Assembly (NCBI GenBank): GCA_031266555.1
Contig: JAISAU010000015.1
Span: forward strand, 1 to 30,823
Length of the DNA stretch: 30,823 bases
Origin: Campylobacteraceae bacterium
GTDB taxonomy: Bacteria > Campylobacterota > Campylobacteria > Campylobacterales > Campylobacteraceae
Reading direction: 5' to 3'
In this document: piece after piece, positions 26,857 through 29,294 of the stretch
Numbering within the stretch: position 1 is the stretch's first letter
How the letters are laid out: the number at the start of each line of letters is the position of its first letter
Notes under the pieces: model-generated
What the model was told of the DNA's origin: nothing
Seen by the model: only the letters and a program-made list of their open reading frames with translations
Databases searched by the model: none
Program-made: the position numbers and the translations under genes

Positions 26857-26917
26857 TGGTATCCCGAACGCGTGAGATTAGGAATCTGACGCTCTATCCA
26901 GCTTGAGCTATCGGGAC
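26857..26917 (-). pseudogene. Decayed partial copy of the tRNA-Arg(CCT) gene at 29218-29294. About 19 nt of the T-arm are deleted and there is 1 nt inserted, and it carries the same 5' and 3' flanking sequence as the intact gene.
   Basis: tggtatcccgaacgcg[deletion]agattaggaatctgacgctctatccagcTtgagctatcgggac plus the flank acaaaatataaaTgtaaattatgccaaaa, compared with the intact copy and its flank. Confidence 0.7.
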
Positions 26918-26935
26918 AAAATATAAATGTAAATT

Positions 26936-27770
26936 ATGCCAAAATCCGGCATCCGCTATCAACGGTATATGGATTTGAATACGATTCAAAATTGGCTTTA
27001 AAATATATCCACGAAATCGCTTCATCCGGCGTTTTGGAGCGGCTTAGTATCAAAAAGGATAGATACGATACTATCCGCTAAGGAAGCGTAATTTTAGGCT
27101 TTTATCAGAAAGCTTAACGCAAAAAAATCATTACAAGCGGCGTTGGTATCAGAGAGGGAGTATATTTAAGCGATATATTGCATTCAAGTGGCACAAAATT
27201 TCCACATAATTTTGACCCTAGCATTGAACTGTTAAAAGATAAATTTAGCACAGACAAAAAGAAAGGCCGATTTTCGCATGCCATATAGAGAAGCTCTTTT
27301 GGGAGTTAAAGCCGTTGCACAAGCTTAATGACTGTTTTTTACGCCCGCTCATAGTAGCGGCAAAACTTGAGAGTATCGGAAGAAATCTTAGTTTTATAAA
27401 GTTCACTTACACAGCGCCTATTTTGTCTTAAATAACTTAAATTACGGATTTACTCACCAAGAAAAGACACTAGTCTCCACAATAATCAAGTTTTACAATA
27501 AAAAAGTCGCGCAAAACGATATATTTTTATATGAGAAACTATTGCCGCTGTATAGGAATTAAATTGGTTGATTTTTATCTTTTCTTTGGTAAAGATTTTC
27601 CAAGACAGAGGTGCGATAAAACCACTCTTTTTTGTGTTTTCCAATGGCTTTTTGAGTATCAAAAGCACAGAGTCTTTATATCTGACAAAAGAGCCGGTGA
27701 AAAAGATATTTAAACCGGAGGTATTCTCTATCGTTATTGATGATAATCAACAGCTTTCAATTCCCAACGG
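26936..27770 (+). pseudogene. Ppx/GppA-family (exopolyphosphatase / pppGpp phosphohydrolase) gene remnant. It is 5'-truncated and broken by stop codons and frameshifts.
   Basis: Translated fragments: ...RYDTIR*, GVGIREGVYLSDIL (the REG motif at the end of the Ppx actin-like domain), EKLFWELKPLHKL..LIVAAKLESIGRNLSF (the HD-domain region, with H-D replaced by E-S), GFTHQEKTLVSTIIKFYNKK. They lie in three different frames. Confidence 0.55.
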
Positions 27771-28097
27771 ATAATATTATAACAGCGCTATAACCGATAT
27801 AAATAAACAACACAAAAGATATTATATTAAGAAACAAACTTTTTTATATAAAAAATAGACAAAAATGGCGGATATAAAAATATATACAAAACTTATCAAG
27901 TAATAAAATATTCCCGCCAATATGACTATACTAAAACAGTAATCTCCCGTTAAATTATAAAGCAAAGTTGAAATCAACATTAAAAATAGAGGCACAATAA
28001 AAATGCTGTTATATTTCTGTAAAATATGACTCTTTTTTCTATCTCTTCTTGCGCATTATTCTGTCTTTCCGACGTATTTTTGTCTATTTTGCACAAT

Positions 28098-29033
28098 TTA
28101 CTCTGCTAATTTTTCCAACAATTCAAATGACGGCACAAAAAACAGTGTTCCCGTTACGGGGCTACTAAAATCCAACAACCTATCATAATTGCCTTCAGGT
28201 TCGCCTATGAACATATTTTCAAGCATTCTTTTTGTTGTTGAAAAAGTACTCGCATAACCTATAAAATAAGTGCCGAACTCGCCTTTTGAGGGATTGGCAA
28301 ACGGCATATTAGCACGTACAATTTTGAGTTCTTTGCCACTATCGTCCGTTATATTTGTAACGGCATTATGCGCATTGGCAGGTTTTACATCTTCTCCAAG
28401 CTCTTCGTCCGTATAGCGGCGACGTCCAATGACCTTTTCCTGCTCTGTTACGGGAAGTTCATTCCAAGTTTTCATATCATGTAGATATTTTTGCACAAAC
28501 GCATAAGAGCCGCCTTTAAAATACTCATCTTCGTCTCCTATAACGCTAAAACTTACCGCATCATCGTTTTCGGGATTTTCGGTGCCGTCTACAAAACCTA
28601 TAATAGTCCTGCCGTCAAAATATCTAAACCCATGCACTTCGTCTATATGATAAACAACTTCATTAATTTTTGAGCTTATAATAGCTGCGAGTTCATAAGC
28701 TACGTCTGTATCTTGCGCCCTAATATGGAAAAACAGATCGCCTTTTGTAGAAACTGCCGTATGTTTTGCACCTTTTATCTCTTTGAATGTTTCAAGTTCT
28801 TTTGGACGAGGTTCGTTTGGGAACAATTCGCCCCATATTTCAGCTCCAAAGCCAAAAACAGCGCTTGGATACGCATCAGGATAACGTTTTCTCATACTTC
28901 GCACTAGAGCTGCAAACTCGCCGCATAAATTTTTAACTGCGCTATTTGCATCTTCGTTTTTGTTTAAACCATATACCATAAAAATCGCACTTGTACCAGG
29001 CGACCTTGTAACATCTTGCGGATTTGTCTCCAT
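28098..29033 (-). CDS. DyP-type (dye-decolorizing) peroxidase, YfeX/EfeB-like.
   Basis: 311 aa from the ATG at 29033 (GAAGGAGAG RBS). The ORF track begins 13 codons earlier at an ATG with no RBS. FDGRTIIGFVDGTENP contains the DyP GxxDG motif, and there are conserved distal Arg and proximal His regions. Confidence 0.75.
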   Translation of the reverse strand: METNPQDVTRSPGTSAIFMVYGLNKNEDANSAVKNLCGEFAALVRSMRKRYPDAYPSAVFGFGAEIWGELFPNEPRPKELETFKEIKGAKHTAVSTKGDLFFHIRAQDTDVAYELAAIISSKINEVVYHIDEVHGFRYFDGRTIIGFVDGTENPENDDAVSFSVIGDEDEYFKGGSYAFVQKYLHDMKTWNELPVTEQEKVIGRRRYTDEELGEDVKPANAHNAVTNITDDSGKELKIVRANMPFANPSKGEFGTYFIGYASTFSTTKRMLENMFIGEPEGNYDRLLDFSSPVTGTLFFVPSFELLEKLAE

Positions 29034-29217
29034 CTTCTCTCCTTCTTTTGATAAGCTATAAGATAATATCATATAATAGTCATGTAAAAACTAATATTAA
29101 TGGTATGCTTGATGTAAGTGCCAAAAGAAATATATAAGACATAAAAGATTGGTTACATGATTAAATCATAAAAAAACAGACTGAAATTTGGCGTTTTATA
29201 CTTAATTTTAATAGCGA

Positions 29218-29294
29218 TGGTATCCCGAACGCGATTCGAACGCGTGACCTTCAGATTAGGAATCTGACGCTCTATCCAGCTGAGCTATCGGGAC
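29218..29294 (-). tRNA. tRNA-Arg, anticodon CCT.
   Basis: 77 nt with an encoded CCA. Hand fold: acceptor GTCCCGA/TCGGGAT (one G-U pair), D-arm GCTC-AGCTGGATA-GAGC, anticodon arm TCAGA-TTCCTAA-TCTGA (anticodon CCT), T-arm ACGCG-TTCGAAT-CGCGT. Confidence 0.8.

Follow-up and report, generated by a model that had tools for sequence, protein, structure and literature searches.

During natural transformation, foreign DNA that carries no recombinase of its own can be joined to a chromosome by homology on one side and by a few matching bases on the other. In homology-facilitated illegitimate recombination, the illegitimate joints form at microhomologies of 3-10 nt, adjacent to a stretch of homology that acts as the anchor (de Vries & Wackernagel 2002; Prudhomme et al. 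2002, as summarised in PMC8504540). The locus that we describe here appears to share this combination of joints, with a tRNA gene as the homologous side. However, its illegitimate joint lies inside the region that is homologous to the anchor, so that the anchor would have been duplicated and no neighbouring DNA deleted, and the event itself is reconstructed from genomes.

Two other kinds of event leave direct repeats of comparable form. Candidate junctions of spontaneous bacterial duplications have been catalogued at repeats of 7-27 bp, and the verified ones at repeats of at least 11 bp (PMC3411829). As in these microhomology-driven tandem duplications, the join at our locus falls between short imperfect direct repeats on the same strand, 2.4 kb apart, and a tRNA gene is part of the unit, as it is in the pneumococcal patAB duplication (PMC4432121). 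Unlike them, our locus keeps the upstream copy over only ~136 nt, with an outer flank that has diverged more than the remainder, and the unit appears to be foreign to the contig. Campbell-type (insertion-duplication) integration likewise leaves the entire homologous segment directly repeated on either side of the inserted DNA, but no circular intermediate or replicon is known for the present case, and a circle would need excision between two 13-nt patches in the donor.

The most familiar comparison is with genomic islands, for which tRNA genes are classic targets. Islands and prophages integrated at the att sites of tyrosine integrases resemble our locus in that direct repeats containing tRNA sequence enclose a segment next to a tRNA gene. 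By contrast, no integrase was found among the scanned ORFs of the stretch analysed here, its repeat comprises the whole gene together with the promoter side, and the inner boundary breaks a housekeeping gene.

To our knowledge, integrase-free gain events are well documented in transformation experiments and seldom resolved to the base in wild genomes. In this study, we examine such a candidate in a Campylobacteraceae contig of 30,823 nt, hereafter called the window. The scar represents no new kind of system and is tidy but ordinary. It would be a clean case from nature in which a tRNA locus gained genes with no integrase involved, and for which both the parental arrangement and the 13-nt microhomology can be recovered, and it serves as a warning that a tRNA-bracketed segment is not always a genomic island.

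Results

An intact tRNA-Arg(CCT) gene and a deleted copy of it stand in the same orientation, one at each end of the 2.4-kb segment (Table 1). Both had been recognised in the initial annotation; ARAGORN and Rfam call the first, and neither program calls the second at default thresholds. At a relaxed Rfam threshold, the second copy scores 26.9 bits against a gathering score of 29, with 4 nt in place of the 20 model positions of the variable loop and T arm. Without a T arm and below the family threshold, it falls short of the complete cloverleaf of a functional tRNA. Two alignments against the intact copy show 17 nt missing and 1 nt inserted in the D loop. The missing bases can be read either as one 17-nt deletion plus a substitution or as a 6-nt and an 11-nt deletion, and in the second reading the 11-nt deletion lies between 8-nt direct repeats of the T arm, CGCGTTCG. 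Apart from this lesion, the tRNA body and 5' flank of the deleted copy differ from the intact copy by 1-2 substitutions only, and blastn aligns the whole pair at 78% over 155 columns (E = 6e-31).

Table 1. Positions and supporting evidence for the features of the 2.4-kb segment and its borders in the window
Feature	Position	Strand	Evidence or remark
TraB/GumN-family gene (gumN)	25806-26660	+	Pfam PF01963, E = 1.7e-64
Spacer after gumN	26661-26809	.	no homologue detected in any fetched locus
3' flank of deleted tRNA copy	26810-26856	-	diverged from 3' flank of intact copy
Pseudo-tRNA-Arg(CCT)	26857-26917	-	acceptor, D and anticodon arms kept; variable loop and T arm gone
5' flank of deleted tRNA copy, promoter region	26918-26944	-	TGnCATAAT-type -10; ends in joint TTATGCCAAAA
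ppx/gppA pseudogene, codons ~214-497 only	26945-27774	+	6pc0 alignment; 92.1% nt identity to L040 ppx
Small membrane-protein pseudogene, after DyP	27757-28075	-	aligned to L040 10998-11333
DyP-type peroxidase gene, intact, 311 aa	28098-29033	-	ATG at 29033; ORF to 29072
Spacer between DyP and tRNA, including 3' flank of intact tRNA (29169-29217)	29034-29217	-	93.3% to L040
Intact tRNA-Arg(CCT)	29218-29294	-	ARAGORN; Rfam 67.8 bits; 77/77 identical to L040
5' flank of intact tRNA, promoter region	29295-29346	-	holds parental 13-nt patch TTATGCCAAAAAG at 29311-29323

The parental arrangement of the insert is found in L040, a related Campylobacteraceae contig on which fdxB, an intact ppx of 497 aa, a small membrane-protein gene, the DyP gene, and a single tRNA-Arg(CCT) follow one another in this order. 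Positions 9732-12161 of L040 match window positions 29346-26941 at 93.3% over 2435 nt, and the match ends at the ppx break. All DNA between the tRNA copies aligns to L040 at 92-97%; to the right, high identity ends at 29346 and drops to ~55% beyond it. The ppx gene of L040 belongs to a conserved plsY-folB-hsrA-fdxB-ppx block. A plsY-folB-RR-x-ppx order is also conserved in L006, the same small membrane gene lies downstream of ppx in L005, and two further lineages carry fdxB and DyP together on short contigs (3441 and 6950 nt), in line with the donor-type order.

This arrangement bears on whether two old paralogous tRNA-Arg genes once flanked ppx and DyP, one of them decaying together with ppx. 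Such a history would be expected to leave relatives with two intact tRNA-Arg genes around a functional ppx, as the initial annotation had proposed to check. No such arrangement was seen: the 21 kb of L040 hold one tRNA-Arg, and fdxB, hsrA, folB, and plsY, with no tRNA, lie upstream of its ppx. Moreover, the first ~213 codons are missing from the ppx fragment of the window, which meets the tRNA flank at a microhomology. With nothing in the data in its favour, we regard the idea of old paralogues as scarcely credible.

The sequences around the two tRNA copies carry further information about how they arose. On the 5' side, 27 nt are common to both (26918-26944 and 29295-29321, 1 mismatch), as had been reported; on the 3' side, the shared flank is not the ~15 nt given earlier but ~47 nt (26810-26856 and 29169-29217) at 82% identity with 3 indels. 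This 3' similarity is significant by itself, with a local score of 22 compared to 10.0 +/- 1.9 in 5000 shuffles, 0.02% of which reached 22. A promoter-like site is predicted on the minus strand at 26962-26933, overlapping the 5' flank of the deleted copy. The two 5' flanks of the window are closer to each other than either is to L040, which requires either a conserved promoter or that both copies derive from the donor. In the 3' flank, the intact copy is 90% identical to L040 and the deleted copy 79%, placing the deleted copy as the outgroup (79-82%). Together with the near-identical tRNA body and 5' flank, this topology agrees with two diverged loci having crossed over within the tRNA gene.

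At the ppx break, the ppx sequence TTATAACAAAAAG and the tRNA 5' flank TTATGCCAAAAAG have 11 of 13 bases in common, with 5-7 exact bases, and the resulting joint TTATGCCAAAA occupies 26934-26944. When both strands of the 21 kb of L040 were searched for the 13-mer with up to 2 mismatches, three sites were found. One is the flank and another lies on the opposite strand; the third, the ppx breakpoint, is the sole same-strand site besides the flank. The two patches are in direct orientation, 2.4 kb apart. A short direct repeat is therefore present at the breakpoint in both parental sequences, and L040 displays the unrearranged arrangement, as is characteristic of a microhomology joint.

The truncated and disrupted ppx/gppA gene described directly after the partial tRNA copy aligns with residues 227-490 of Helicobacter pylori GppA (6pc0, E = 3.6e-44), and its start is the actual breakpoint. 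The N-terminal ~200-213 codons were searched for throughout the window and are absent, so what remains is not the full-length frame with N-terminal ASKHA domains that defines a Ppx/GppA phosphatase. Compared to L040, the fragment has 3 nonsense substitutions, 5 frameshifting deletions, and one 6-nt deletion. Changes on its branch are synonymous in 15 cases and non-synonymous in 19; the L040 branch has 17 synonymous changes and 1 non-synonymous change. The adjacent membrane-protein gene, 111 aa in L040, has lost its start codon (ATG to ACG) and has deletions of 16 nt and 1 nt, both of which shift the frame. The protein matches no Pfam or NCBIfam family.

The DyP-type peroxidase said to follow the ppx remnant is indeed encoded there. 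Its translation exceeds the curated cut-offs for both Pfam domains (PF04261, 83 bits; PF20628, 192 bits) and for TIGR01413 (259 bits, cut-off 100.5), and contains the GXXDG motif as GFVDG. Amino acid identity is 97.7% to L040 and 85-88% to six other lineages. With a dN/dS of 0.089 and no indels compared to L040, the gene appears to be under purifying selection, seemingly the sole part of the insert kept by selection, and it is predicted to be functional. Among JGI metagenome contigs, 28 DyP loci matched at no more than 72% (best full-length match), in unrelated contexts and none adjoining tRNA-Arg(CCT). Plasmid and phage collections yielded only distant matches, 65-67% for DyP and ~80% for the tRNA.

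Given the setting, we considered the remnant of an integrase-mediated genomic island or prophage in tRNA-Arg that would have lost its integrase and for which the partial tRNA would be an att repeat. The sequence 3' of tRNA-Arg(CCT) differs among L040, L041, and the window, which is hotspot-like and, with the standing of tRNA genes as island targets, lends this account some appeal. However, as noted in the initial annotation, the repeat is longer than an att core typically is and takes in the entire gene. It is not just the 3' end of the gene that is repeated but the 3' flank, the whole tRNA body (minus the later deletion) including its 5' half, and 27 nt on the promoter side, and the inner end of the repeat is a joint at a microhomology inside ppx. 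The reported absence of an integrase also held: a scan covering window ORFs of 100 aa or longer detected no integrase family, and there was no phage or plasmid match to support an island. A search for integrase remnants had been proposed for 27500-28100, a stretch that holds the ppx C-terminus and the broken membrane gene; because all intervening DNA is ordinary chromosome in L040, there is no room for them. We therefore retain the part of the earlier interpretation that saw a recombination scar at a tRNA locus and drop the degraded integrated element, an origin that we rate as extremely improbable. The scar is most likely non-functional and the insertion integrase-independent.

An assembly chimera, in which two Campylobacteraceae genomes of one metagenome were joined through their shared tRNA-Arg, was also evaluated. 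The sample contains several related lineages, and the contig is not equally related to L040 on its left and on its right, both of which would suit a false join. Yet the joint is a mutated tRNA copy whose longest exact match to the intact gene, counted on the sequence, is ~29 nt. This is shorter than the largest k-mers of metagenome assemblers. Further, the Logan assembly of SRR14710922, produced independently, matches positions 24501-29875 at 100% identity, both junctions included, and the decay of ppx, the membrane gene, and the tRNA is coherent with a real locus. A chimera is thus very unlikely.

The 2.4-kb patch appears to be much closer to L040 than the remaining contig is. Along the 30.8-kb contig, homology to L040 does not extend beyond these 2.4 kb, the OYE gene is only 84% identical to L040 at the nucleotide level, and for 13 window proteins left of the joint the L040 organism supplies no 90% cluster-mate. 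Other lineages, 4-5 of them and mostly Campylobacteraceae MAGs, are present in the RibA and flotillin clusters at 91-95%. The missing cluster-mates, along with the DyP identities and the 3'-flank topology given above, indirectly suggest a foreign origin for the patch; an incomplete L040 assembly could mimic the missing cluster-mates. Base composition (GC3, GC skew) does not set the patch apart, as GC3 is ~0.31-0.33 in both genomes. A homologous anchor adjoins the patch, since the tRNA gene is identical at all 77 positions between the window and L040 and the flanks are conserved. Divergence of the patch from L040 is mosaic, ranging from 0.7 to 10%, which indicates later recombination and blurs any dating.

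Left of the scar, the resident (recipient) chromosome would end with gumN. This gene lacks any 90% cluster-mate, and among species-representative genomes its sole relative is on MAG contig L002 (66% aa), where no tRNA follows it; alr-gumN synteny is common to the two contigs (78% and 66% aa). An rRNA operon after gumN in L002 was considered and rejected, as Rfam detected no such operon there and a 1400-aa activase gene occupies the region. The spacer at 26661-26809 gave chance-level matches only in short-word blastn and no alignment with the L002 spacer. An empty site, with gumN, tRNA-Arg, and OYE but without DyP, was not found in any genome examined. Exact-protein look-ups returned only the window contig for DyP, gumN, and a CmeU-like protein, and no record for OYE. 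The OYE homologues detected are termite-gut-type spirochaete genes and not relatives of the tRNA-Arg/DyP locus.

Discussion

A vertical history, played out in place, would explain part of this evidence. Here, the 13-nt patches would have undergone unequal exchange, and the unit between ppx codon 213 and a point 27 nt upstream of the tRNA would thereby have been duplicated in tandem; a second event (inversion, translocation, or deletion), with its breakpoint ~47 nt 3' of the upstream tRNA copy, would then have joined the remnant to gumN before decay set in. A 13-nt patch at the joint and repeats in direct orientation 2.4 kb apart are what microhomology-driven tandem duplication predicts (PMC3411829), a tandem duplication with a tRNA gene near the join point has been documented (PMC4432121), and the two window copies share 5'-flank states absent from L040. 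However, the second breakpoint is needed and goes unexplained. The 3' flank of the deleted copy is also 18% diverged, although the ppx fragment implies ~3% neutral change since its inactivation, so that 9 differences are seen where ~2.8 would be expected (rough Poisson p ~0.003). Moreover, this history requires the window and L040 organisms to be closely related, at odds with the 13 left-side proteins and the restricted extent of L040 homology described above. Overall, we find it unlikely. As a separate account of the diverged flank, a recent import of the DyP-to-tRNA segment into an in situ duplication was tried and rejected, because the low-divergence tract (28445-28894) stops short of the flank.

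Instead, we think that the scar probably records an integrase-free import that was anchored on the tRNA gene and joined illegitimately at the 13-nt patch. The starting state would have been a resident chromosome with tRNA-Arg(CCT) next to gumN, an arrangement seen in no genome. The incoming unit of ~2.4 kb, spanning ppx codon ~213 to 27 nt upstream of tRNA-Arg, would have come from a related Campylobacteraceae lineage with the order fdxB, ppx, membrane gene, DyP, tRNA-Arg. One joint would be illegitimate, formed at the near-repeat between the tRNA 5' flank and ppx, and the other a homologous exchange through the identical 77-nt tRNA gene and its flanks. Having served as the homology, the tRNA gene would then flank the insert on either side, with both copies pointing the same way. 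From the event onward, the ppx fragment would have been truncated; it would subsequently have decayed along with the redundant left tRNA copy and the passenger membrane gene, with DyP kept by selection.

Two routes could lead to this outcome. The unit may have entered through homology-facilitated illegitimate recombination during natural transformation, for which competence of the window organism is assumed by analogy with its relatives. Alternatively, a circle or tandem-repeat unit closed at the 13-nt patch may have integrated by a crossover in the tRNA gene. The two routes are equivalent on present data. Whereas the two tRNA copies, the pseudogenes, the L040 arrangement and the microhomology at the break are observed, the foreign origin of the patch, the direction of transfer and the route are our reconstruction. 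Several points weigh against import, among them the missing empty site, the uniform base composition, the mosaic divergence from L040 and the mutual resemblance of the two 5' flanks. In addition, the homology available (the 77-nt tRNA and its flanks, together ~130-155 nt) is short for transformation, and the one-step topology is awkward, meaning that an intermediate such as a circle or tandem unit may be needed.

A broader version of the import would make the unit of ppx 3' half, DyP, and tRNA-Arg a recurrent integrase-free "tRNA-anchored cassette" among Campylobacteraceae of the same gut community, which we offer as a speculation and consider quite doubtful. In donors, the 13-nt near-repeat would let the unit loop out as a circle or tandem unit, and the universally conserved tRNA gene would let it recombine into other Campylobacteraceae species. 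If so, an oxidative-stress enzyme would have spread without mobile-element machinery. For annotation of the locus itself, three features deserve to be labelled as pseudogenes: the deleted tRNA-Arg copy, the ppx fragment, and the small membrane-protein gene.

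Two copies of a tRNA gene bracket decayed ppx and an intact DyP gene

The initial annotation described a partial tRNA-Arg(CCT) duplication bracketing a decayed ppx/gppA gene and a DyP-type peroxidase (DyP) gene, and we recovered each of these features. The window makes up one entire 30,823-bp contig from a Campylobacteraceae MAG. Both tRNA copies are on the minus strand, and their similarity runs past the gene on both sides; that of the 3′ flanks was significant alone, the observed score being reached in 0.02% of 5000 shuffles. The dead copy received no ARAGORN or Rfam call at default thresholds. 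Under a relaxed Rfam threshold, it scored 26.9 bits, short of the 29-bit gathering score, owing to loss of the variable loop and T arm. Aligned to the intact copy, it has 17 nt missing and 1 nt extra in the D loop, and its body and 5′ flank differ by just 1-2 substitutions. Between the copies, the passenger genes had decayed, with the first ~213 codons of ppx absent anywhere in the window, and DyP had a dN/dS of 0.089 and zero indels. As had been noted, integrases were lacking: none of the families appeared among scanned window ORFs of ≥100 aa. An assembly chimera is highly unlikely, given that the junction is a mutated tRNA copy whose exact match to the intact gene is at most ~29 nt (counted on sequence) and that two assemblies agree, an independent Logan assembly of SRR14710922 being identical to the window over 24501-29875.

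Features of the window, with nucleotide identity to the related L040 locus where aligned
Feature	Position	Strand	Identity to L040	Gaps vs. L040	Remarks
3′ flank of dead copy, shared with intact copy	26810-26856				~47 nt, 82%, 3 indels
tRNA-Arg, dead copy	26857-26917	-			Sub-threshold Rfam score, alignment to intact copy
5′ flank of dead copy, shared with intact copy	26918-26944				27 nt, 1 mismatch
ppx/gppA remnant	26945-27774	+	92.1%	Six deletions	Matches H. pylori GppA residues 227-490
Small membrane-protein gene, broken	27757-28075	-	92.9% (region)	17 gap columns	Start ATG to ACG; 16-nt and 1-nt deletions
DyP-type peroxidase gene, intact	28098-29033	-	97.1% (segment alignment)	None
DyP-tRNA spacer			93.3%	4 gap columns
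tRNA-Arg(CCT), intact	29218-29294	-	100%	None	ARAGORN and Rfam
OYE-type flavin oxidoreductase gene	29629-30600	-
Second interval of the OYE locus	29393-29485
Tandem paralogues (three)	352-1218, 1900-2760, 3873-4748	-			~288 aa
Putative AbiEii-type nucleotidyltransferase toxin	5269-5982	-			Pfam PF08843, PADLOC AbiEii
BcrAD/BadFG-type activase gene	11826-16145				1400 aa
Low-GC trio	19627-21528	-			GC ~27%, GC3 0.15-0.23

A related genome holds the parental arrangement

Searching for DyP homologues returned a protein with 97.7% identity, encoded at locus L040 on a contig of 108 kb from a different Campylobacteraceae MAG. In window orientation, L040 reads plsY, folB, hsrA, fdxB, ppx, membrane gene, DyP, tRNA-Arg(CCT), and a fragmented Old Yellow Enzyme-type (OYE) gene, with fusA, rpsG, rpsL, and rpoC farther beyond. 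Its ppx is intact (497 aa), its membrane gene encodes 111 aa, and it has only one tRNA-Arg within 21 kb. L040 refutes the idea of two ancient paralogous tRNAs, to which we give next to no credence. L040 9732-12161 aligned to window 29346-26941 at 93.3% across 2435 nt, stopping at the ppx truncation point. Because L040 matched across all segments, everything between the repeats is accounted for, and DyP is not mobile-element cargo. Of the two possibilities raised initially, a scar at a tRNA locus without an integrase holds, with an illegitimate joint and no integrase, whereas a degraded integrated element does not: both the repeat anatomy and L040 contradict an integrase island remnant, which we consider extremely improbable.

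The plsY-folB-RR-x-ppx order also occurs in a more distant relative (L006), and two further lineages have fdxB and DyP together on short contigs. With the reconstructed ppx fragment as query, a word-based homologue search overlooked the ~90%-identical L040 ppx, its best reported match being a 71% protein, so absence there is not evidence of absence. No empty-site genome was found.

The inner repeat end is an illegitimate joint

At the ppx break, L040 reads GTTTATAACAAAAAGTCGGCATCC; the tRNA 5′ flank, in the window and L040 alike, reads AATTATGCCAAAAAGCTG; and the window carries the hybrid AATTATGCCAAAATCCGGCATCC. The two parental sequences match at 11/13 positions (TTAT..CAAAAAG), and 5-7 bases are exact where the crossover occurred. 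Across both strands of the 21 kb of L040, the 13-mer occurred with ≤2 mismatches at three sites only: the tRNA flank itself, one opposite-strand site, and the ppx breakpoint. Given this match and its rarity, the inner repeat end is an illegitimate joint at microhomology. Conservation with L040 extends over 52 nt of the native 5′ flank, of which the dead copy retains 27 nt only, and therefore this end is a breakpoint rather than a mobile-unit edge. Catalogued repeats at candidate spontaneous bacterial rearrangement junctions measure 7-27 bp (PMC3411829), and illegitimate joints in transformation involve microhomology of 3-10 nt, according to a summary in PMC8504540.

Four observations favor import

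Four observations favor import: the patch is an outlier, its L040 identity is confined, the 3′ flanks have a particular topology, and the passengers decayed while DyP was kept. For DyP, identity to L040 is 97.7%, and identity to each of six other lineages in the clade is 85-88%. None of the 13 proteins encoded left of the joint (GumN, Alr, HemB, HemN, ArgF, RibA, RsmG, HtpX, flotillin, a DUF2603 protein, an Fe-S protein, and two hypothetical proteins) had a mate from the L040 organism in 90% clusters; the RibA and flotillin clusters held four or five other lineages at 91-95%, mostly Campylobacteraceae MAGs. The L040 Ppx and HsrA clusters were singletons, and its ferredoxin cluster held MAG proteins of eight accession series, including its own, and none from the window MAG. 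From cluster membership, as distinct from direct comparison of core genes, we infer that the patch was likely foreign in origin; base composition was uninformative on this point. High L040 identity was limited to 26941-29346, with ~55% in the spacer to the right and only 84% at OYE.

Among the 3′ flanks, the intact copy and L040 were closest (90%), with the dead copy as outgroup (79-82%). If two diverged loci crossed over within the tRNA gene, such a diverged flank beside a near-identical body and 5′ flank would result; a fresh in-situ duplicate as source of the dead copy does not account for it. With ppx substitutions polarized by L005 (a comparison locus) as outgroup, the window branch carried 15 synonymous and 19 non-synonymous changes and the L040 branch 17 and 1. 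These counts imply neutrality for about a third of the window branch, or ~3% per site, at which ~3 differences would be expected in the 3′ flank vs. the 9 plus 3 indels seen. We take the direction of transfer from ppx, which is intact and sits in its conserved operon only in L040-type genomes. Tandem duplication in situ between those same 13-nt patches, with another rearrangement afterwards, accounts for the joint but fails on the outlier status, the confined identity, and the 3′-flank topology; we regard it as possible but doubtful.

The locus is a non-functional scar of ordinary recombination, and it probably records integrase-free acquisition of the DyP gene at a tRNA gene, with a small chance left to other, unlisted histories. 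A complete homologous segment lies as a direct repeat at both insert ends, one inner end being the illegitimate joint, and homology at the tRNA locus is short (~130-155 nt). Import could have proceeded through Campbell-type integration of DNA circularized at the 13-nt patch, through recombination of a single unit from a tandem duplication in the donor, or through an event like homology-facilitated illegitimate recombination with the tRNA gene as anchor. This type of event is already known; the present case is well resolved.

Divergence of the patch from L040 is mosaic (0.7-10%): the ppx fragment, membrane gene, and 3′ third of DyP are 6-10% divergent, and the middle of DyP (28445-28894) is only 0.7-2% divergent. 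Third-codon differences were 13/116 codons vs. 6/196 codons. This pattern suggests a later short recombination tract.

Variable surroundings and other window features

The window OYE had its best protein matches (83-86%) among JGI metagenome proteins and in one MAG of the Spirochaetaceae; the lower matches include Treponema primitia (71%) and further MAGs of that family, and the nearest from Campylobacterota is at 62%. Its nucleotide identity was 83.7% to a gene on contig L037 (47% GC) that is first in an operon with an aldo/keto reductase; in the window, a weak remnant of an aldo/keto reductase gene (E = 0.03) comes after OYE. The fragmented OYE of L040, in the same place, was 87% identical in amino acids to a Spirochaetaceae MAG protein vs. 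83% to the window's, and window-L040 homology here covers barely more than the ORF. Judging by these alignments, OYE alleles look to have been exchanged repeatedly across phyla.

Surroundings of tRNA-Arg(CCT) and DyP differ among relatives. One locus (L041 7245-10933) reads fusA, tRNA-Arg, MarR, MFS, DUF4431, DyP, and a second OYE; another (L042 436-1371) has an amino-acid permease after DyP and is without the tRNA; and in L040 (5952-9783), 3.8 kb with a hexapeptide transferase and OYE separates fusA from the tRNA. The activase gene directly follows gumN in a 66%-related MAG (L002 10970-15101) and lies 10 kb upstream in the window; gene order is therefore fluid in the family.

Elsewhere, the three tandem paralogues share 62-66% amino acid identity, start MRNLCC(D/N)GTMSFEKLIE, and had zero Pfam or PADLOC matches. 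The low-GC trio encodes proteins of 127 aa, 112 aa (DUF4325, STAS-like), and 389 aa; those of 127 and 389 aa had no Pfam match, PADLOC matched 0/3, and the trio may be a foreign islet.
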